Part shown: positions 2,433 to 54,929 of the stretch, piece by piece
Layout: every line of letters starts with the position of its first letter
How positions within the stretch are numbered: position 1 is the first letter of the stretch
Origin: a virus
Reading direction: 5' to 3' (one strand)
IMG/VR virus record: IMGVR_UViG_3300019124_000003
Coordinates: 1-64,000 of that record
Length of the DNA: 64,000 bases
The notes under the pieces: model-generated
What the model saw: the letters and a program-made list of their open reading frames with translations, nothing else
Told to the model about the DNA's origin: nothing
Databases searched by the model: none
Program-made: the position numbers and the translations under genes

Positions 2433-3071
2433 ATGCTAACAATCGCCTGTCTCTCTCAGAAGGGTGGATGCGGTAAGTCCACTCTTTCGCGTCTCATAGC
2501 CCGCACCTACGCTCAGGCCGATTGGCGAGTGAAGATCGCGGACTTCAACACCAAGCAGAAAACCTCCGTCGATTGGGTCGCCTTGAGGCTCCATCAGAAG
2601 ATCGAGCCCGTGATCCAGGCCGAGCCATTCACGTCGGTCAAGACGGCCCTCAAGCAATCGAACTTCGACCTGATGGTGTTCGACGGCAAACCGGATTCCG
2701 AGCCGTCCACCCTCGATCTCGCCAAGGAAGCCAATCTGGTCGTCATTCCTGCGGTCCCGACCCAGGACGACCTGATCCCCAATATCAAGTTCGCCCACGA
2801 GCTGCGGGCGCGGGCCGTCCATCAGCCGAAGATCTTCTTCGTCATCAACAAGACAACCGAATCCCAGGTCTGGGCGGATGCGGCACGCGCCTATATCCAG
2901 GAAGCGGGCTACTCCGTCGCCAGGACGGAGCTGCCCTACAAGACGGGCTACCAGACGGCACAGAACACGGGTCGCGCCGTCTCGGAGACGAACTACCCTT
3001 CACTGAACGAGAAAGCCGATGCCCTCGCAGCCGAGATCGTGGAACGCCTCACCCAGCTCACAGGGAATTAG
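2433..3071 (+). CDS. parA: ParA/Soj-family partition ATPase (small type Ib-like, 212 aa)
   Basis: Deviant Walker A KGGCGKST near N-terminus; ParA-like length and layout. Confidence 0.9.
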   Translation: MLTIACLSQKGGCGKSTLSRLIARTYAQADWRVKIADFNTKQKTSVDWVALRLHQKIEPVIQAEPFTSVKTALKQSNFDLMVFDGKPDSEPSTLDLAKEANLVVIPAVPTQDDLIPNIKFAHELRARAVHQPKIFFVINKTTESQVWADAARAYIQEAGYSVARTELPYKTGYQTAQNTGRAVSETNYPSLNEKADALAAEIVERLTQLTGN

Positions 3072-3072
3072 A

Positions 3073-3369
3073 ATGTCGCCGACCCCGAAGAAGCCCAACG
3101 TTCCTCCGCCCCCTGGCAAAGGTAGCTCCGCTCCCAAGCAACGGTTCATGACCAGCGTTCCGACGCTGGACACGGCGCCCGACAACCTGTCCAGGCCCTC
3201 CGAGACGACGCTCCAGGACCTCAACTTCAAGGTCAGCCCGGACTTCCACCGCGCGTTCAAAGTCGCGGCGACCACCCGCGGCATGACCATGAAGGAGCTC
3301 CTGGAAGCCTGCTACTCCCACTACATGCAGGCCTTCCCGATGAAGCAGGACGACCTGTTCCGGAAGTGA
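3073..3369 (+). CDS. ribbon-helix-helix DNA-binding protein, ParG-like partner of ParA
   Basis: ATG 1 nt after parA stop; disordered basic N-terminus then beta-alpha-alpha pattern LNFKVSPDFHRAFKVAATTRGMTMKELLEACY. Confidence 0.65.
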   Translation: MSPTPKKPNVPPPPGKGSSAPKQRFMTSVPTLDTAPDNLSRPSETTLQDLNFKVSPDFHRAFKVAATTRGMTMKELLEACYSHYMQAFPMKQDDLFRK

Positions 3370-3619: not shown

Positions 3620-4300
3620 TTAATCGCTATTCTTTTTGCGACGCGAAGCTTTCTTGTCAGTCGCTTCACTCTCGCTCGCTTCTGTTACGTTGTTCTCTTT
3701 CATCTTGAGCGAGAGTTTCGACGCAAGCAACTTTGTTGCTTCGCTATCGTAGTTCACGCGATAAGCGTGCGTGCGCGACATAGACGCGACACGCTTAATG
3801 ATGTTGAACACTTGCAACGCATTAACGTTCATCGACGTTTGAGCGCTTGCAGTCGAAGCAGACGCGCGCGTAGTAGTGTAACGTTCGATATGCTTCTCGC
3901 GCTCTGCGCTGAAAGCGTTACACTCTAACGAACAAGCTGCGCGAAAGTCTTCTGCGTTGCAGTCGAGATCAGCAGCGCTCAGATTGAAGACGCTGCGAAT
4001 GCAACTCAAGAACATTGCATTCATGTGCGTGACAGTCTCGTTGTTCGCGAACAAGCGCGCGAGTTCAGCAACGCGCTTGAGAGAATGAACGTTGAATTGT
4101 GCATCTGCGTTGCGCGACGAAACAACGAAGTCGCAAGCAACGTTGAGTTTCATCATGACTTCAGCAAGTCGCACGTCGTTGATCTTTTTGCGATAATCTT
4201 GCAGATTACGAACGTTGCTTTCGTTCTTATCTTTCGCAATGCGCGAATCGACGAAAGCAAGATGCGCGTCGAGATAGTCTTTAGCAGTAGCGTAGTTCAT
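3620..4300 (-). CDS. hypothetical protein in low-GC island; paralog of 6628..7476
   Basis: Start chosen at MNYATAK behind leader CAGCAACACACAAAAGAGAG; C-terminal SASTASAQTSMNVNALQVFNIIK matches SASTASTQTSSTMHALQALGIVK of 6628..7476. Confidence 0.7.
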   Translation of the reverse strand: MNYATAKDYLDAHLAFVDSRIAKDKNESNVRNLQDYRKKINDVRLAEVMMKLNVACDFVVSSRNADAQFNVHSLKRVAELARLFANNETVTHMNAMFLSCIRSVFNLSAADLDCNAEDFRAACSLECNAFSAEREKHIERYTTTRASASTASAQTSMNVNALQVFNIIKRVASMSRTHAYRVNYDSEATKLLASKLSLKMKENNVTEASESEATDKKASRRKKNSD

Positions 4301-4356
4301 GTTTCTAACTCTCTTTTGTGTGTTGCTGTTATCAGTTGTGTTCAACTGACAATGCA

Positions 4357-5227: not shown

Positions 5228-5259
5228 TTCGCTAATTCGCTATTTCGCGTCGGCTGGGA
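5228..5259 (-). promoter_or_regulatory. class-1 phage promoter
   Basis: TCCCAGCCGA-N14-TTAGCGAA upstream of 4838..5188. Confidence 0.5.
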
Positions 5260-5586: not shown

Positions 5587-5724
5587 CTAGCCATTCACGA
5601 TGATGTAGGTGGCTGCGACGACGGTGCAGATGCAGGCGCAGCCGATGAGCGAGAGAATGGCGTCGAGGGTCGCATGGACACGACGCTTGGCGTTGTCGCT
5701 GAGAGTGAAACCTTGATGGCGCAT
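5587..5724 (-). CDS. small membrane protein (45 aa)
   Basis: Leader GTCAGCAACACGAAAGGAG then ATG; C-terminal hydrophobic helix ILSLIGCACICTVVAATYIIV. Confidence 0.5.
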   Translation of the reverse strand: MRHQGFTLSDNAKRRVHATLDAILSLIGCACICTVVAATYIIVNG

Positions 5725-5758
5725 GTTGCGCTCCTTTCGTGTTGCTGACACGAAGAGA

Positions 5759-5790
5759 GTCGCAAATTTAGAGACGGGGTTCGGCTGGGA
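5759..5790 (-). promoter_or_regulatory. class-1 phage promoter
   Basis: TCCCAGCCGA-N14-TTTGCGAC upstream of 5587..5724. Confidence 0.55.
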
Positions 5791-6418: not shown

Positions 6419-6464
6419 TGTTCTGCTCGTGTGTTGCGTCGCTCTCTCTTGCGACATGATCAAC

Positions 6465-6496
6465 ATAGCGAGCAGCGAGCAGGCATTCGGCTGGGA
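6465..6496 (-). promoter_or_regulatory. class-1 phage promoter
   Basis: TCCCAGCCGA-N14-CTCGCTAT upstream of 6122..6418. Confidence 0.5.
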
Positions 6497-6627: not shown

Positions 6628-7476
6628 TTACGCTGCCTTGAGAGCCACCTCCCTGAGCTTCTTCGTCACGGGAGATTCCTGCACGATGTAGGTCGGGTTG
6701 CGTCCCGAGCCGGTCGCCTTGACGATCCCGAGCGCCTGCAGGGCGTGCATGGTGCTCGAGGTCTGCGTGGACGCCGTCGAGGCGCTGACCGTGTGCCGGA
6801 CCAGGTGTTGACGGATGGTGAAGTCCACCGGGATCTTGTTGGACGCTGCCGCCTTCGCCACCTCGTGCGTGAACGCCACCTTCGCCTTCTCGCAGTTGAA
6901 GAGGCTCTTGATCAGGGCGACGTTGATGGCATTCGTCAGCCCCTCGTCAGTCAGCCCCTTCACGATGTCCGCGAGCTTGCCAAGCCCATAGACGTTGAAG
7001 AACGAGCCCTCGTGGACCGAGCGATTGATGAAGGTCGGCTCCACGTTGCACGCCAGGAGCACACGCGCGGCACGCTTAGTGACGAGCTTGGCGCGAGCGT
7101 TCTTGAGGTTCTTTTGGATCGACTCGTTGTCGGGATGATCGGCAGCCTCCTGGGCCGCGCGAATGTCGATCTGCTTGGCGATGGCGTGGACCATGACCTC
7201 GACCGCCTCCTCGCCCTGAGCGAGCAGCAGCTCGTCGAAGGACGGCATGTCGGTCTCGTCGCCGGCAGCTTCGGTCTCGGTGGCATCGACCGCCTCCGCC
7301 TCGGCGAGAGCCACGCCCTCGACCTCAGCCTCTTGGACCTCGACCGTCTCGAGAGCCTGCTCCTGCTCTGCGGCAGCTTCGGCTTCAGCGGCGGCGATGA
7401 TGGCCGGATCGATCTCGATCTCGCGAACCTCAGCGAGAGCAGCGACCATGTTCTGAGAAGCGTTCTTGCGAGCCAT
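6628..7476 (-). CDS. hypothetical protein, acidic Ala/Glu-rich N-terminus plus conserved C-terminal domain
   Basis: Start at MARKNAS behind GCAACACACGAAGGAG leader; ORF-track N-terminal extension to 8109 is non-coding-like. Confidence 0.75.
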   Translation of the reverse strand: MARKNASQNMVAALAEVREIEIDPAIIAAAEAEAAAEQEQALETVEVQEAEVEGVALAEAEAVDATETEAAGDETDMPSFDELLLAQGEEAVEVMVHAIAKQIDIRAAQEAADHPDNESIQKNLKNARAKLVTKRAARVLLACNVEPTFINRSVHEGSFFNVYGLGKLADIVKGLTDEGLTNAINVALIKSLFNCEKAKVAFTHEVAKAAASNKIPVDFTIRQHLVRHTVSASTASTQTSSTMHALQALGIVKATGSGRNPTYIVQESPVTKKLREVALKAA

Positions 7477-7528
7477 GTTCAAACTCCTTCGTGTGTTGCA
7501 AGTCAGCGTCGTTGCTGACACTTCGCTT

Positions 7529-7560
7529 GTCTCACAGCAGGAGTTGGGGTTCGGCTGGGA
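7529..7560 (-). promoter_or_regulatory. class-1 phage promoter
   Basis: TCCCAGCCGA-N14-TGTGAGAC upstream of 6628..7476. Confidence 0.6.
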
Positions 7561-7721
7561 TCGAAGAGGGAAATAAAATTGCCTGGGCTCCCGGAGCCTA
7601 CGCACTTTTATTGCCTTGGGGCCTTTACGTGCGCGCGTCGCGTTCATTAGATCTATGCGAGCGCAGGAGCCGGGAGTTGCCTTGGGAGCGGCTCGAAGGT
7701 CACGGCCGGAGCCATGGTCAT

Positions 7722-7790
7722 GCCCAAAGCCAACGCCGAATAATATTAGATATATAGATACTACTAATATATCGGGAGTTGGCTTTGGGC
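7722..7790. repeat. 13-bp perfect inverted repeat flanking an extremely AT-rich core
   Basis: GCCCAAAGCCAAC (7722-7734) / GTTGGCTTTGGGC (7778-7790) around AATAATATTAGATATATAGATACTACTAATATAT. Confidence 0.9.
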
Positions 7791-7842
7791 ACGCCCTTGG
7801 TAGACTGCTCCCGGGTCTGTGCCGTGGGCCCTCCCATGGGAA

Positions 7843-8054
7843 TGCCAACACTCCGGCCTCGGTGTCGCCTTGGCTCTCCCATGGGGTTGCCTCGGTCTCC
7901 CCATGGCAATGCCTAGGCACAACCATGTGCCTGCCTCGGGACGGCGCTCGGTTCCGGGCATGGGCTGCCTCGGCAGATCCGTTATCCTGGCTCCTTGCCA
8001 GCTCCCGCCTTGGTTCCTGCGGCCGTGGCAAACCTCGGCGAGCCATGGCAGGCG
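7843..8054. repeat. array of CCCATGG-N3-TGCC-like direct repeats
   Basis: Copies at 7843-7856, 7878-7891, 7900-7913; degenerate copies at 7957-7969 and 8042-8054; non-coding context. Confidence 0.7.
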
Positions 8055-8059
8055 ACCGA

Positions 8060-8089
8060 CCAAAAAGAAGGGCGGCCCGAAGACCGCCC
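8060..8089 (-). terminator. intrinsic terminator (UUCG tetraloop)
   Basis: GGGCGGTC-TTCG-GGCCGCCC then TTCTTTTTGG; G-U pair only in the minus-strand RNA. Confidence 0.7.
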
Positions 8090-8235
8090 GTAAAGTGTCG
8101 GAGACCCAAGCCTCTGCCGTTCGTCGCCCGGAGTCCGCGGACAGAGGCTCAGACCTCGTCAGCAACACACGCGAGAGAGTGGATGAACGCCTCCGGGGTG
8201 CTTGTTAGCGCGTTCGCTCGCTCACGTTTCGACAT
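8060..8235 (-). ncRNA. candidate ~170-nt sRNA antisense to the conserved early-gene leader
   Basis: Class-1-like promoter 8236-8268 and intrinsic terminator 8060-8089 with no credible ORF between; contains CUCUCUCGCGUGUGUUGCUGAC (8179->8158). Confidence 0.4.
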
Positions 8236-8268
8236 ATAGCGACACGCAGTCGGAGCGTCGAGTGGGGA
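8236..8268 (-). promoter_or_regulatory. class-1-like promoter of the candidate sRNA
   Basis: CCCCACTCGA-CGCTCCGACTGCG-TGTCGCTAT; spacer nearly identical to that of 12077-12108. Confidence 0.45.
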
Positions 8269-8328
8269 AAGGTAGGCTTGAAGAGTGCCTATGCCGTGGT
8301 AGGCGAGCGCCGCACGTCTTCCTTGTCC

Positions 8329-8585
8329 GTCTCTATAGGTGTCTCTCTACGGTCCATTCTCTACCGGTAGGTCTCTCTGTAGAGGCTATATCGTTTACCG
8401 GGTCCTCAGATGCCCGAAGCCGTCTCTCTATCTCTTATACGTAGTATCTATGTTCTATATCGAGAGACGGATTTGGGTCTCTCCGGAATATGTATTCGGG
8501 CTTGCCAGGTAAGCGATTGCCGCTTCCGCTCTCATGAGCGTGTCTCTCTTGAGCCCATGCTATCCGCTGAATTTTCGTCTCAAGA
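8329..8585. repeat. iteron-like array of GTCTCTCT(A/G) repeats
   Basis: Copies start at 8329, 8341, 8371, 8422, 8477, 8542, 8577, plus an inverted copy at 8462-8468, in a ~700-bp gene-free region. Confidence 0.8.
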
Positions 8586-8833
8586 GCTATTCCCCGCTGC
8601 CTCTGTCTGAAGCCCTTCCGGAAATGAGCCGGATTCCAAGCCTTTGCTCCCTTGGGAGCCTGATGTTGAGCGGAAAATGGGTTCGGTCGCTCAACATAGA
8701 CCAAACATAGGACCAAGAAGCTTCAACATCCTTGGCGGGTCGTTTCTTGGTCGCTTGTTACGTGGATGTTTGGCCGGTGTTTAGCGGACCGGCCGTGGCC
8801 TTGAGGACCAGGACCGCTGATTCAACATTTTGG

Positions 8834-9154
8834 TCAGGGCTGGCCGATGCCGAGATTGAGCGTCCACAGGCATTCGAACTCGCCGTCGGGGCGGATGCAG
8901 GCGTAGTCCTCTCCCCGGTAGATCATGGTCTTCATGATCCATCCCTTCCCTGCTTTCAGCCTGCCGCAGTCGCCGCTCTGATACTTCTCCTGCATGAAGC
9001 GGGCTGCCGTGGCCTTGTCCTGCTCGTTGAGCTGGATCAGCTTGTGGAAGTCCGCGATGGCGATGCAGGCCGGTAGGCTCGTCTCGATGGTGACGGGCTT
9101 TGCGAGAGCGGGTGTGGCGACTGCCAGTGCCAGCAGGAAAGCGGGTAGTCTCAT
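8834..9154 (-). CDS. secreted small protein (signal peptide)
   Basis: MRLPAFLLALAVATPALA-KP signal-like N-terminus; RBS AAAGGAGA; 4 Cys. Confidence 0.7.
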   Translation of the reverse strand: MRLPAFLLALAVATPALAKPVTIETSLPACIAIADFHKLIQLNEQDKATAARFMQEKYQSGDCGRLKAGKGWIMKTMIYRGEDYACIRPDGEFECLWTLNLGIGQP

Positions 9155-11617: not shown

Positions 11618-11658
11618 GGTTTCAGAACTCCGTCTCGCGTGTTGTTGACGCTCACACT

Positions 11659-11690
11659 GTCGCATGAGCGTCTGCGGATTACGGGTGGGA
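11659..11690 (-). promoter_or_regulatory. class-1 phage promoter
   Basis: TCCCACCCGT-N14-CATGCGAC upstream of 11414..11617. Confidence 0.5.
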
Positions 11691-12041
11691 AGTGAGCTTC
11701 AGAAGATCGACGCAGATCGGCACGAAACGCATCCAAAGGTGCTCGTCCTCGGGCGGCTGATCGAGGGTGCCGTCGAGGTCGTCGTAGCGGGGATGAAGCC
11801 CGATGTGGAAGCGGCGCTCGGCATCGGTGGTGCCCCAGATCGACCCCTTGTCGGCCGAGATGGACAGCCACTTCCCTTCTTCGCCGTCCCAGAGGTAGGC
11901 GTGGTTCAGGGTGCGGAGCTGGAGCTTGCGCTCGTCGGCGAGCTGCCACAGGCGATCGAAGAATTCTTGGCTCGGCGTGTCGAAGGACAGCACGTGCATG
12001 TGGATGTCGGCGTCGAAGTATATCTTAGGGTTGTGGAACAT
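11679..12041 (-). CDS. hypothetical protein (120 aa)
   Basis: Start MFHNPKI behind class-1 promoter and leader CAGCAACACGCGAGAACAG. Confidence 0.65.
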   Translation of the reverse strand: MFHNPKIYFDADIHMHVLSFDTPSQEFFDRLWQLADERKLQLRTLNHAYLWDGEEGKWLSISADKGSIWGTTDAERRFHIGLHPRYDDLDGTLDQPPEDEHLWMRFVPICVDLLKLTSHP

Positions 12042-12076
12042 TTCTGTTCTCGCGTGTTGCTGTTGACGCTTCGACA

Positions 12077-12108
12077 GTCTCACACGCTCAGCGGAGCGTC
12101 GGCTGGGA
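12077..12108 (-). promoter_or_regulatory. class-1 phage promoter
   Basis: TCCCAGCCGA-N14-TGTGAGAC upstream of 11679..12041. Confidence 0.6.
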
Positions 12109-12109
12109 T

Positions 12110-12358
12110 CTACGCGGCAATTTCTCTGGCGATCTGCCGGCCCTTTGCCGTCAGCCGCGCCACGTCGTTGTCGTTGTCCACCTCGACCAGGCCCTTCGGC
12201 GCCAAGCGGAAGATGGTGCCGGTCACGGCGCGCTCGCCGATCCACCAGGAGTAGTCGGACTGTTGGTTCGAGCGAAAGACGCGCCTTGCCTCGCCGTGCT
12301 GCCGCAGCAGCCGGATCACCTGGCGCTCGGTGTCGGTGATGAAGGTCTTCTTCGCCAT
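12110..12358 (-). CDS. hypothetical protein (82 aa), possibly DNA-binding
   Basis: Start MAKKTFI with RBS GAGAGGAA; basic, helix-rich. Confidence 0.6.
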   Translation of the reverse strand: MAKKTFITDTERQVIRLLRQHGEARRVFRSNQQSDYSWWIGERAVTGTIFRLAPKGLVEVDNDNDVARLTAKGRQIAREIAA

Positions 12359-20787: not shown

Positions 20788-20862
20788 TGGAGTTGCGGGA
20801 GGGACTTGAACCCTCATAGACGGATTTGCAGTCCGCCGCCTCACCCTTCGGTCCACCGCAAC
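20788..20862 (-). tRNA. tRNA-Cys (GCA)
   Basis: Manual fold: 7-bp acceptor GTTGCGG/CCGCAAC, anticodon loop CTGCAAA, T-arm GAGGG-TTCAAGT-CCCTC, discriminator U73, CCA encoded; D-stem weak. Confidence 0.85.
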
Positions 20863-21080
20863 GAAATTTCGGCCCGCTGAATCGGGATGCCAGGCAAGCC
20901 GGGGATCGGAGCCAGACGGGCCCGGATGGTTTCGGTTCATCCTACTGCCACCCATGTTCGGGTCGATGCGGGCCGGATTGGCTACCGGCACCCGGTTTTG
21001 CGACCCAACCCGTCGGCTGGGGCTCAGGGCGGTCCCGACTCTAGCGAGCTCCCGGAGGATCTACCTCTGCCGCATCGAAA

Positions 21081-21156
21081 TGGTTGCTCCGGCTGGATTT
21101 GAACCAGCGCTCCCGGATTATGAGTCCGGCGCTCTACCAGGCTGAGCTACGGAGCC
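21081..21156 (-). tRNA. tRNA with CAT anticodon (Met, Ile2 or initiator unresolved)
   Basis: Manual fold: D-arm GCTC-AGCCTGGTA-GAGC, anticodon arm CCGGA-CTCATAA-TCCGG, T-arm GCTGG-TTCAAAT-CCAGC, CCA encoded; G1-A72 mismatch. Confidence 0.8.
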
Positions 21157-21256
21157 GAAGAGTGCAGGTCGGACGCTACCCCGACCCTGTGGACGATAGG
21201 CGTGGTATCGACGCCTCGTTTTACGTCATCGGCATTGCTGCCGACCCTGGAAGGCG

Positions 21257-21329
21257 TGGAGCCGGCCGGAATCGAACCGGGCATCCTTCGCAGACCGTTC
21301 TGGACGCTCTACCCTTGAGCTACGGCCCC
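21257..21329 (-). tRNA. tRNA-Ala-like element with non-canonical anticodon arm
   Basis: Acceptor GGGGCCG/CGGCTCC with G3:U70, canonical D-arm GCTC-AAGGGTA-GAGC and T-loop TTCGATT. The anticodon region TCCAGAACGGTCTGCGA cannot form a 5-bp stem with a 7-nt loop and has no U33. Confidence 0.5.
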
Positions 21330-22186: not shown

Positions 22187-22219
22187 ATGCGAACCTCCGT
22201 GTTGCTGAACGATCACATG

Positions 22220-22251
22220 ATCGCGCAGCAGAGCACGGAAGTCGGGTGGGA
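22220..22251 (-). promoter_or_regulatory. class-1 phage promoter
   Basis: TCCCACCCGA-N14-TGCGCGAT upstream of 21911..22186. Confidence 0.5.
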
Positions 22252-53951: not shown

Positions 53952-54929
53952 TTAACCGGTCAGGCCGTCGAGTTCGCCCAGGAGCTCCTCGATCTCGTTC
54001 TCCGGCAGGTCGGCGCCGAAGTCGTCAGCGGCCTTCTCGGCCTTCGGGGCCGGCTTCTCCTCGGCCTTCGGAGCGGGCTTCGCGGCCGGCTTGTAGCTCT
54101 CCGGGACGCTCTCACCCATGATCTCCGTCTCGGAGACCTCGACCTCCTCCAGCACCACGTCGTTATCGACCTCCTCGACGGTCGCCTTCGTCAGAAGGGC
54201 AGCCGTCTTCGAAGCGCCGGACGAGCCGATGCTCTTCGTGGTCACGTCGATGCCGATCATGTTGGAGATCGCGATCAGCGCCTTGCGCTCCTCGCCGTCG
54301 CGGAAGTATTCGCGCTCGATCAGGGCATCGAGGTCGTGCAGCTTGTCGAGGGTCTCCTTCGAAACCTTCTTCGACTTGAACTGCGGCATCACCTTGTATT
54401 CGGTGTCGCGACCCTTGCCGGTGCGCTCGATGGTGAAGTCGTAGCCCGACTCCGGATCGACCGCGTTGCCGTAGTCGGCGTAATACTCTTCCATCATGGC
54501 CGTGATCATGCCGAACACGGTGACGGGCAGGTTGAGCGGAACCGGATCTTCGCTCTCCTCCGAGCCCGAGCGGATGCAGGCGTTGACCAGGACGGTCTTC
54601 TTGGGCTTCCAGTCCTTGATGATGGCGAGCGTCTCGTCGTCGGGAGCGACGCGGGAGGCCTTCTCGATGGCAAGATCGATCGGGCAGGTTTCGCCCTTGA
54701 TGATCTCGCGGCAGCCCGCGACGGCGACGGGCTTGCCATTCAGCTCGGTCTTGATCCAGTGGACCCCGACCTCGCGGAAGAAGACGATGTTGGAAGGATC
54801 CCAGGACGGGAGAATGCGGACGCGGGTCTTGCCCTCCTTGAGGGTGACGATCTTGCCCGAAGAACGGTTGAACTTGGTCTTCGCGCCCTTGATGACGGCG
54901 AGCATGTCAGCGGCAGATGGTGCGGCCAT
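53952..54929 (-). CDS. gp32-like single-stranded DNA-binding protein
   Basis: RVRILPSW, Cys pair C-x9-CP, YDFTIERTGKG and an acidic C-terminal tail parallel T4 gp32; class-2 promoter upstream, strong terminator downstream. Confidence 0.7.
   Translation of the reverse strand: MAAPSAADMLAVIKGAKTKFNRSSGKIVTLKEGKTRVRILPSWDPSNIVFFREVGVHWIKTELNGKPVAVAGCREIIKGETCPIDLAIEKASRVAPDDETLAIIKDWKPKKTVLVNACIRSGSEESEDPVPLNLPVTVFGMITAMMEEYYADYGNAVDPESGYDFTIERTGKGRDTEYKVMPQFKSKKVSKETLDKLHDLDALIEREYFRDGEERKALIAISNMIGIDVTTKSIGSSGASKTAALLTKATVEEVDNDVVLEEVEVSETEIMGESVPESYKPAAKPAPKAEEKPAPKAEKAADDFGADLPENEIEELLGELDGLTG

Follow-up and report, generated by a model that had tools for sequence, protein, structure and literature searches.

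Genomic context of the proposed RNA gene

The viral DNA analyzed here, the first 64,000 nucleotides (nt) of the IMG/VR record IMGVR_UViG_3300019124_000003 (hereafter, the window), is part of a ~114-kb alphaproteobacterial phage-plasmid in the pLM21S1/RHEph10/V1VFA-S family, a group described as phage-plasmids with parA, parB and repC genes (PMC5537653, PMC7969092, PMC12509600). On the minus strand of the window, positions 8267->8061 form a promoter-to-terminator unit without a credible open reading frame (ORF) that is predicted to encode a ~168-nt non-coding RNA, and this RNA would carry the complement of the leader that precedes the ribosome-binding site (RBS) of many early genes. The unit lies in a 1.36-kb stretch (7477-8833) that lacks a credible gene and in which the public gene calls of the source contig, a metagenome assembly of 114,398 bp in ENA, are empty as well. 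The downstream flank of this gap is gene A (6628-7476, minus strand), encoding a 282-amino-acid (aa) protein with no recognizable domain, and the upstream flank is gene B (8834-9154, minus strand), encoding a 106-aa protein with a signal peptide. Profile searches of Pfam, PHROGs, NCBIfam and PDB yielded nothing meaningful on the function of gene A. Elsewhere, the window encodes T4-like replication and recombination proteins (a gp32-like protein, a RecA/UvsX-like protein, ribonucleotide reductase and ThyX) as well as rIIA.

Alignment-based scans identified homologs of gene A that are 40-58% identical and located on contigs of ~110-120 kb. Homologs are also found on plasmids of Methylobacterium, Shinella, Rhizobium, Sinorhizobium (pLM21S1) and Pararhizobium, in the Rhizobium phages V1VFA-S, B1VFA, RHph_X66, RHEph10, RHph_N1_15 and RHph_Y2_11, and on stand-alone contigs in Faunimonas and Roseospira genomes and in a Methylocystis metagenome-assembled genome. 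No match was obtained when IMG/VR was searched with the gene A protein alone or for the exact pattern of the plus-strand leader and ORF of the unit, nor by a BLAST comparison of the gap with GenBank phages. All long relatives possess a gene-free gap of 1.2-1.4 kb upstream of gene A, the primary sequence of which is not conserved and which carries no annotation in any deposited relative. Where individual relatives have to be distinguished below, they are denoted by locus numbers (L002 and so on).

Promoter, terminator and predicted fold

The promoter of the RNA gene (8234-8267, minus strand) consists of the class-1 upstream element CCCCACTCGA and the hexamers CTCGAC (8262->8257) and CTATAT (8239->8234) separated by a 17-nt spacer; the predicted transcription start is at approximately 8230-8227. 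The hexamers are close to CTTGAC-N17-CTATAT, which we take to be the housekeeping sigma-70 consensus of alphaproteobacteria, and the site was not flagged by an E. coli-type promoter scan. The 32-mer CCCCACTCGACGCTCCGACTGCGTGTCGCTAT occurs only once on the minus strand, at 8267->8236. When aligned with the promoter at 12125->12050, the region shows 36 invariant columns (CCCA..CGACGCTCCG..CTG..GT..TGTCGAA.CGT), and together with at least nine others on the minus strand it makes up a set of elements of the CCCA(G/C)CCGA-N15-16-TG(C/T)GA type (at 5258, 5789, 6495, 7559, 8266, ~11690, 12107, 14106, 22250 and 23485), most of which precede leader-bearing genes. The initial annotation, made from the window itself, had called this site a paralog of a class-1 promoter, correctly so given the alignment and the membership in the larger set. 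The class-1 early promoters are phage-specific and have the general form CCCA(G/C)CCGA-N15-16-TG(C/T)GA(C/G)nnT, with GTCAGC following ~6 nt on; the upstream element does not resemble a sigma-70 -35 hexamer, and the TGCGAYnnT part is common to the relatives.

The intrinsic terminator (8089->8061, minus strand) reads GGGCGGTC-TTCG-GGCCGCCC followed by TTCTTTTT in the DNA; its 8-bp stem has one U.G pair and is otherwise G-C, and the terminator ranks second in the terminator scan. In the RNA, the 3' module (8061-8094, minus strand) accordingly includes an A/U-rich linker, ACUUUAC, the hairpin GGGCGGUC-UUCG-GGCCGCCC and the tail UUCUUUUU. The sole ATG-started ORF on the minus strand of the unit (28 aa, 8235->8149) has its start codon within the -10 hexamer, upstream of the predicted transcription start, and therefore is not on the transcript, and a GTG-started frame from 8168 reads through the terminator and is taken as spurious. 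The two further elements of the initial description, a clean intrinsic terminator about 170 nt downstream of the promoter and the lack of a credible ORF in between, thus hold as well. Judged by these features, namely its own promoter, a Rho-independent terminator and no ORF, the locus appears to be an independent transcription unit.

The minimum free energy (MFE) fold of the RNA (-73.0 kcal/mol, z = -1.49) consists of a 5' hairpin, HP1 (8169-8227, minus strand), a long central hairpin, HP2 (8095-8168, minus strand), with an 18-bp stem formed by GAGGUCUGAGCCUCUGUC and GGCAGAGGCUUGGGUCUC, and the terminator. In the predicted HP1, a purine-rich, leader-like 5' arm, ACGUGAGCGAG, pairs with the CU-rich half of the sequence that is complementary to the early leaders; this pairing could be an auto-inhibitory fold or else explain why the inverted copy exists. 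The predicted fold of the opposite strand is weaker (-64.5 kcal/mol, z = -0.77).

An anti-leader complementary to the leaders of early genes

The candidate seed of the RNA, hereafter the anti-leader, is CUCUCUCGCGUGUGUUGCUGAC (8179->8158, minus strand). As originally reported, it is the exact reverse complement of an idealized version of the leader, which has the form (GUCAGC..GCUGAC hairpin)-GCAACAC(AC)G(CG)A(G/A)AGGAG-AUG. The GCAACAC core of this leader occurs 13 times on the minus strand, in 9 cases at 10-30 nt upstream of a start codon (4320, 5206, 5739, 6431, 7493, 12054, 19705, 22199 and 54956); all eight positions that had been listed previously are among these leader sites, and 54956 is the ninth. 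The GUUGCUGAC part of the anti-leader lies outside HP1, is the most conserved block among the relatives and is the complement of GUCAGCAAC, where the early mRNAs are predicted to start.

To estimate how far this complementarity exceeds chance, 93 leaders taken from a gene call based on G+C content at third codon positions were compared with the RNA and with 1000 dinucleotide shuffles of it. Exact complements of at least 10 nt to the RNA are present in 8 of the 93 leaders, compared with 0.71 +- 0.89 in the shuffles, none of which reaches 8; at a length of at least 9 nt, the count is 13 of 93 against 2.7 +- 1.7. On the sense strand, which served as a control, one leader matches at 9 nt or more and none at 10 nt or more, and among 63 coding-internal windows the respective counts are 4 and 0. 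The matched stretches are located at approximately -35 to -7 relative to the start codon, that is, next to and partly within the Shine-Dalgarno (SD) sequence. Hence the seed is complementary to several mRNAs near the RBS, beyond chance expectation for the window. Because the leaders are paralogous, their excess amounts to a single statistical event, the presence of an inverted leader copy inside the unit, so that independent replication must come from other genomes, and it is the conservation in the relatives that supplies it.

The candidate targets include gene A itself, which is preceded by a class-1 promoter and leader (7477-7559, minus strand; CCCAGCCGA..TGTGAGACA..GUCAGCAACGACGCUGAC hairpin..UUGCAACACACGAAGGAG..AUG at 7476). 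The gene A leader contains a 10-nt exact complement (GCAACACACG) adjoining the SD sequence and is among the best-ranked by the change in free energy on cofolding (ddG -13.7). A 15-nt exact complement is present in the leader CAGCAACACGCGAGA of the gene starting at 12041; its region (12042-12110, minus strand) also contains the class-1 promoter that is the nearest paralog of the promoter of the RNA. The leader of the gene at 3620-4303 (4304-4345, minus strand; CAGCAACACAC) has a ddG of -14.7. The remaining candidates, all on the minus strand, are a class-1 promoter with the leader GUCAGCAACAC..AAGGAG (5718-5790), a class-1 promoter with the leader GCAACACACG (6419-6496), the promoter TGCGACAGT with the leader GUCAACAACACGCGAGACGGAG (11618-11692), and a class-1 promoter with the leader UCAGCAACACGGAGG (22187-22251). 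A leader of the same family, CGCAACACGAACGAACGCAAGAAAGGA, also precedes the gene for the gp32-like single-strand-binding protein (53952-54929, minus strand), remote from the early cluster; its complementarity to the RNA extends over fewer than 9 nt, and this gene may or may not be among the targets.

Conservation of the unit and co-variation of the anti-leader with the leaders

An intrinsic terminator on the gene strand, 350-1060 nt (mostly 350-800 nt) upstream of gene A, was detected in ~25 elements, including the phages V1VFA-S, RHEph10, RHph_N1_15 and RHph_Y2_11 and the plasmids pLM21S1, Methylobacterium AMS5 and Pararhizobium p5. In most of the relatives that were parsed, a promoter-like site is found 75-170 nt upstream of this terminator, for example, TTTGCA-N17-TATATT in L002, CTTGCA-N16-CTATAT in L008, TTGAAA-N-CATATT in L004, TGTGCGACA in L052 and TGTGAGACA in L053. 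The MAFFT global alignment of 17 units aligns only three blocks, namely the anti-leader, the A/U-rich linker (ACYUUA.A) and the terminator, and therefore alignments at the level of clades were used in place of a covariance model. The linker, the GC-rich hairpin and the U tail are kept across the relatives. An HP1-like hairpin with a leader-like 5' arm is present also in L052/L053 (AAGAGGAGC/GCUCCCUCUU), L008 and L046, and HP2 varies in both length and sequence.

The anti-leader follows the leader sequence of each element. In L002, the anti-leader CUCUCUCUUGUGUC matches the leader GACACAAGAGAGAG of the same element over 14 nt, and in L011, where the leader motif itself is altered, the anti-leader is CUUGCUUUGCG and the leader is CGCAAAGCAAG. 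The same holds for L008 (CUUGCGUUGCUGACGA with the leaders AGCAACGCAAG and UCGUCAGCAAC, and CUUGUGAGUG with the gene A leader CACUCACAAG), L010 (GUUACUCUCG with CGAGAGUAAC), L003 (UUGUGUGUUGCG with CGCAACACACAA) and the RHEph10 clade (CUUGUUGAUUAC with GUCAACAAC). In this clade, the change from CAGCAAC to CAACAAC in the leader is mirrored by the change from GUUGCUG to UUGUUGA in the RNA (UUGUUGA facing UCAACAA). When whole 10-kb loci were compared, with genuine leaders of opposite-strand genes set aside, the longest antisense matches to leaders fell inside the unit in the window, L002 (14 nt), L003 (12 nt), L008 (12, 11 and 10 nt), L011 (11 nt) and L010 (10 nt). For a formal test, the gene A leader alone was scored by local alignment against the units of 22 elements, and own pairings were compared with cross pairings in 100,000 permutations. 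The diagonal sum is 380 against 313.5 expected, and none of the permutations reaches 380 (p ~1e-5); the own gene A leader ranks first in 5 of the 22 elements and among the top three in 11. In the sense orientation, this test is not significant (p = 0.066). Between V1VFA-S and pLM21S1 (L052/L053), a 25-nt seed block is the longest invariant stretch, and the helices change with compensation. Thus, in the homologs, the seed is either conserved or co-evolves with its candidate targets.

Several observations favor the gene strand as the one that would form the RNA. Of the 37 pairs in the consensus structure of the RHEph10 clade, 6 have undergone compensatory double changes, and several are invariant G-U pairs, in place of which the opposite strand would have C-A mismatches. 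In 12 of 17 homologs, the gene strand has the more stable fold of the two, and the T-run follows the terminator hairpin on the gene strand only.

Interpretation of the RNA unit

On the basis of these observations, we propose, with a probability of roughly 60%, that the unit encodes a trans-acting antisense small RNA (sRNA) that pairs beside the RBS of the early class of mRNAs and most likely represses them. The trans-acting geometry that the initial annotation had envisaged is supported by the leader matches, the recurrence of the promoter-to-terminator unit in ~25 elements and the own-versus-cross test, and the search for conservation in related phages that it called for thus turned out in its favor, with the seed tracking the leaders of each element.

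Several observations weigh against this interpretation. Terminator scans found no unit in about 10 loci, where it is absent or atypical (L014, L015, L017, L018, L023, L034, L035, L037, L040 and L059), exact complementarity is short (at most 8-9 nt) in L004, L006/L009 and the most distant relatives, and L002 folds better on the opposite strand. In the window, the z-score of the fold is no better than the above -1.49, and in the MFE structure the seed is mostly base-paired, with CUCUCUCGCGU in HP1 and GUGUUG at the base of HP2. The GCUGAC portion of the match is also the right half of the GTCAGC..GCUGAC palindrome in the leaders and hence is uninformative with respect to orientation, which leaves the C/A-rich and SD parts as the informative ones. 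Calculations of duplex energy agree only in part with the earlier expectation that the predicted duplexes would be better than those of shuffled controls: the mean for the seed alone in RNAduplex (-20.3 against -18.1 +- 0.8) is narrowly so, with ~1 in 200 shuffles being equally good, whereas the counts at fixed thresholds are within 2 standard deviations of the shuffles. With RNAcofold, the ddG is -6.9 for cassette leaders and -4.8 for other leaders (p = 0.06), and RNAduplex with the full RNA against leaders across the phages gives -30 to -50 kcal/mol for any GC-rich pair and is uninformative. Energy-based prediction thus appears to separate targets poorly in a genome of 60% G+C and lends weak support to the proposed pairing.

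Among the alternatives, it seems improbable that the unit is a structured RNA or terminator element without a trans target, which would have originated by inverted duplication of a promoter-leader cassette and in which only its own hairpin would be selected, for RNA stability, processing or insulation of transcription, the leader complementarity being a by-product of paralogy. The 5' part of the RNA does resemble a leader and, in the predicted fold, is paired to the CU-rich half of the anti-leader, the promoter and the initial transcribed sequence are paralogous to the cassette at 12110->12050, and the thermodynamic gain from trans pairing is modest. However, the best-kept block, GUUGCUGAC, and its clade variants are outside the internal hairpin and have no internal partner, the seed is perfect over 10-15 nt to the leaders of other genes while being imperfect to its own 5' arm, and it tracks the gene A leader across the 22 elements. 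The latter result is equally compatible with a feature that acts at the DNA level, given that the permutation test cannot tell an RNA duplex from a DNA inverted repeat. Under this explanation, the leader motif would be bound by a protein, either as the operator of a repressor or other regulator of the phage or as an iteron, and the copy in the gap would be an inverted site within a maintenance or origin region; the abundance in the gap of AT-centered palindromes, 22-nt CCATGG repeats and TAGAGAGAC repeats, the GTCAG-N2-10-CTGAC palindromes at many promoters (11 against 0.7 expected), and the ParA and ribbon-helix-helix (RHH) partition proteins encoded nearby are in line with it. We nevertheless rate this explanation as quite unlikely because the match includes the purine run of the SD sequence and a non-palindromic C/A-rich stretch, which are RNA-level features, and the matched copy is always located between a promoter-like site and a gene-strand terminator, ~60-110 nt before the latter. 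In addition, the flanking helices co-vary as RNA, with G-U pairs, and the other strand has neither a second half-site nor a promoter.

Similarly doubtful is an action restricted to gene A in cis, whereby read-through of the terminator would yield a long 5' untranslated region in which the anti-leader folds onto the gene A leader, as in the c4 system of phage P1. The unit is on the same strand as gene A and upstream of it in every relative (at a distance of 600 nt in the window), the co-variation with the gene A leader is significant on its own, and gene A is among the best cofold targets. Yet gene A has a class-1 promoter of its own (7559->7528), the terminator of the RNA is strong, and the longest complements in several elements are to leaders of genes other than gene A. 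We attach very little credence to the possibility that the plus strand is the functional one, with the inverted leader GTCAGCAACACACGCGAGAGAGTGG-ATG driving the synthesis of an 18-aa peptide (MNASGVLVSAFARSRFDI; 8183-8239, plus strand) and the minus-strand RNA being its partner as in type I toxin-antitoxin systems. The leader is perfect, there is an SD-like GAGAGAG 6 nt before the ATG, and the peptide has a hydrophobic core, GVLVSAFA, but no comparable ORF exists in the six relatives inspected (L002, L003, L004, L008, L010 and L011), the plus strand of the unit has no class-1 promoter, and the terminator works on the minus strand only. The plus side of L009 does contain a 15-aa ORF, which is different and unrelated, and is missing from the near-identical L006. 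We therefore reject the 18-aa ORF as a functional product, consistent with the preference for the minus strand in the initial annotation.

Two further candidates were discarded. The unit is not simply the terminator of the gene B operon: this terminator is 750 nt downstream of gene B, and a promoter-like site intervenes in the window and in the relatives in which one was parsed. A T4-type origin transcript, that is, a promoter followed by a downstream unwinding element, is unlikely because the strong terminator precedes the AT-rich palindrome.

Returning to the antisense sRNA that we favor, we infer that the unit is transcribed and that its product pairs in trans in vivo, with repression rather than stabilization as the outcome and with whatever role Hfq might have. 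In the tentative model, the RNA would be transcribed from an early-class promoter and end at the strong intrinsic terminator. The seed CUCUCUCGCGUGUGUUGCUGAC would then pair in trans with the C/A-rich leader GUCAGCAAC(AC)ACG(CG)AGAG of approximately ten early mRNAs, including that of gene A, located 600 nt downstream on the same strand; the targeted leader spans the region from about the 5' end of the mRNA to the SD sequence. Such pairing, over 10-15 nt just 5' of the RBS and partly into it, would most likely block binding of the 30S subunit or trigger cleavage of the duplex, thereby damping or silencing the early class as a whole. By analogy with GcvB-type regulation and with c4 of P1 and P7, translational repression is the likely mode, and stabilization of the 5' ends of the mRNAs may be an alternative outcome. 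In view of the co-variation with the leaders, one RNA probably controls a whole class of genes. Since the RNA and its candidate targets share a promoter class, the circuit would amount to delayed negative feedback or to a threshold against leaky early expression, that is, either a delayed shut-off after infection or induction, or a threshold during maintenance of the plasmid-prophage.

A more speculative extension, which we regard as possible and rather unlikely, is that the RNA is an immunity determinant of the widespread ~110-120 kb alphaproteobacterial phage-plasmids that silences the entire early regulon, by way of a leader common to all early transcripts, and excludes superinfecting relatives, such that the co-evolving pairs of seed and leader would define heteroimmunity groups. 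If this were the case, the RNA would keep the plasmid-prophage quiescent, and the principle of c4 in P1 and P7 would be extended from an operon to a regulon.

Comparison with known antisense RNAs

The c4 RNA is listed among the antisense RNAs of phages (PMC12197685). Like the RNA described here, c4 (of the immI region of P1 and P7) belongs to a phage-plasmid and lies upstream of a target encoded on the same strand, and both feature short complementarity at or beside the RBS as opposed to a fully overlapping antisense. Co-variation of seed and target between P1 and P7 defines heteroimmunity, and the seed of the present RNA also co-varies with its candidate targets. In contrast, c4 is processed from the transcript of its target and acts on a single operon (icd-ant) at two sites, whereas the present RNA is flanked by a promoter and a terminator of its own and has about ten candidate targets at dispersed positions; it does not share a transcript with an antirepressor operon, the unit and gene A having separate promoters and the function of gene A being unrecognized. 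Rfam includes a C4 model. No homology to c4 was detected: no Rfam family for such an RNA reaches the gathering score in the window, and no antisense-RNA family was found by E-value searches of the gap and of the loci of six relatives. Overall, the Rfam searches, by gathering threshold and by E-value, returned only tRNAs along with sub-threshold noise (microRNA-like matches on the palindromes and mmgR). The mmgR/alpha-r8 family (RF00519) was rejected given a score of 22.7 bits against a gathering score of 41 bits and a match confined to the terminator region (8055-8115).

GcvB is an sRNA with multiple targets in which a G/U-rich seed recognizes C/A-rich leader elements. The present RNA is similar in that a GU-rich seed, GUGUGUUGC, faces the C/A-rich GCAACACAC just upstream of the SD sequence in many mRNAs, and in the composition of the 3' module (an A/U linker, a GC hairpin and a U tail). 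Unlike GcvB, to which it is not homologous, it is encoded by a phage and would be aimed at paralogous leaders of that same phage, which share the promoter class of the RNA.

The CI RNA of P4, sar of P22 and OOP of lambda are likewise small and encoded by phages, and they act on phage regulatory genes through base pairing (PMC12197685). The sar and OOP RNAs are cis-encoded and fully complementary to one target, and the P4 CI RNA is processed and causes premature termination at two sites of one transcript; the RNA described here, by contrast, presents a short seed to an entire class of transcripts. The host elements carry RepC-type replication genes (PMC5537653, PMC12509600), and in being a small RNA encoded in a plasmid-type region, the RNA is reminiscent of the counter-transcribed RNAs (ctRNAs) of repABC-type plasmids. 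Those, however, are antisense to the rep leader that they control, whereas this RNA is on the same strand as its neighbors and has no overlapping target; with the unit located in a gene-free gap, no overlapping gene and no ctRNA model matched, a plasmid ctRNA was rejected.

The best reading of these comparisons is that the RNA represents a new family of trans-acting antisense sRNAs, which has no entry in Rfam and is not annotated in any deposited relative. To our knowledge, phage-encoded sRNAs that regulate phage genes are known almost exclusively as pairs of one RNA and one target, such as OOP, sar, c4 and CI. Here, one RNA appears to match the leader of approximately ten early transcripts of its own promoter class, and the match co-evolves across a large, poorly studied family, among whose members are cultured Rhizobium phages as well as plasmids of Methylobacterium, Sinorhizobium, Shinella and Pararhizobium. 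If the proposed function is correct, the RNA would be a compact post-transcriptional switch for an entire temporal class of genes, would provide a testable account of the unusual conserved leaders and would be a candidate specificity determinant for immunity between related elements. With V1VFA-S, B1VFA, RHEph10 and their hosts in culture, this proposal is directly testable.

Repeats and other features of the window

Three large imperfect palindromes flank the RNA gene (7712-7800, 8403-8487 and 8693-8770), with arms of 27-31 nt that are 74-81% complementary and centers of 24-27 nt, which are AT-rich in the two that were read. Two of the palindromes are paralogous (7754-7769 matches 8436-8451, and 7768-7789 matches 8456-8477). 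These palindromes, which have AT-centered counterparts in the gaps of relatives such as L004, L008, L052 and L053, are candidates for elements of the plasmid-prophage that unwind or bind proteins. Just downstream of the terminator of the RNA gene, at 7818-7940 (extending to ~8050), there are repeats centered on CCATGG or CCAAGG with a spacing of 22 nt (and 45 nt), and the relatives have a GGAAATTAGGAACGG-like conserved motif and CCATGG repeats at the same position. This array is a candidate centromere or iteron array for the ParA/RHH system or for a replication protein. The ParA/RHH pair itself (2433-3369, plus strand) consists of a ParA-like ATPase (212 aa) and an overlapping 116-aa RHH protein; it resembles type Ib partition systems, is encoded on the strand opposite to the early genes and is conserved in the relatives.

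Just upstream of the RNA promoter, at 8335-8550 (minus strand), the purine-rich repeat (T/C)AGAGAGAC occurs three times, along with variants such as TAGAGAATGG and TATAGAGACGG; all three exact copies in the 64-kb window are in this region, on the gene strand. At the equivalent place, the relatives contain TAGAGAG or ATAAGGGA repeats. These repeats resemble the SD sequences of the respective elements, show partial complementarity to the CU-rich half of the seed and could be decoy sites or DNA-binding sites. Palindromes of the form GTCAG-N2-10-CTGAC are strongly over-represented in the window (11 against 0.7 expected, with none of 100 shuffles reaching 11). Their positions include 5875, 7502, 21759, 34594, 38181, 40861, 49629, 55672 and 62030, and AGTCAG..CTGACT variants are found in many leaders. 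Those palindromes that were compared with the gene calls lie in intergenic leaders, of later as well as early genes. They might form hairpins at the 5' ends of the RNAs or be bound as operators by a dimeric regulator.

Finally, three tRNA-like genes are located at 20788-21329 (minus strand), namely Cys-GCA, Met-CAT and a third one at 21257-21329. The latter was missed by ARAGORN, scores 44 bits with Rfam and matches the 'pseudo-CCA' tRNA that is annotated in V1VFA-S and B1VFA.

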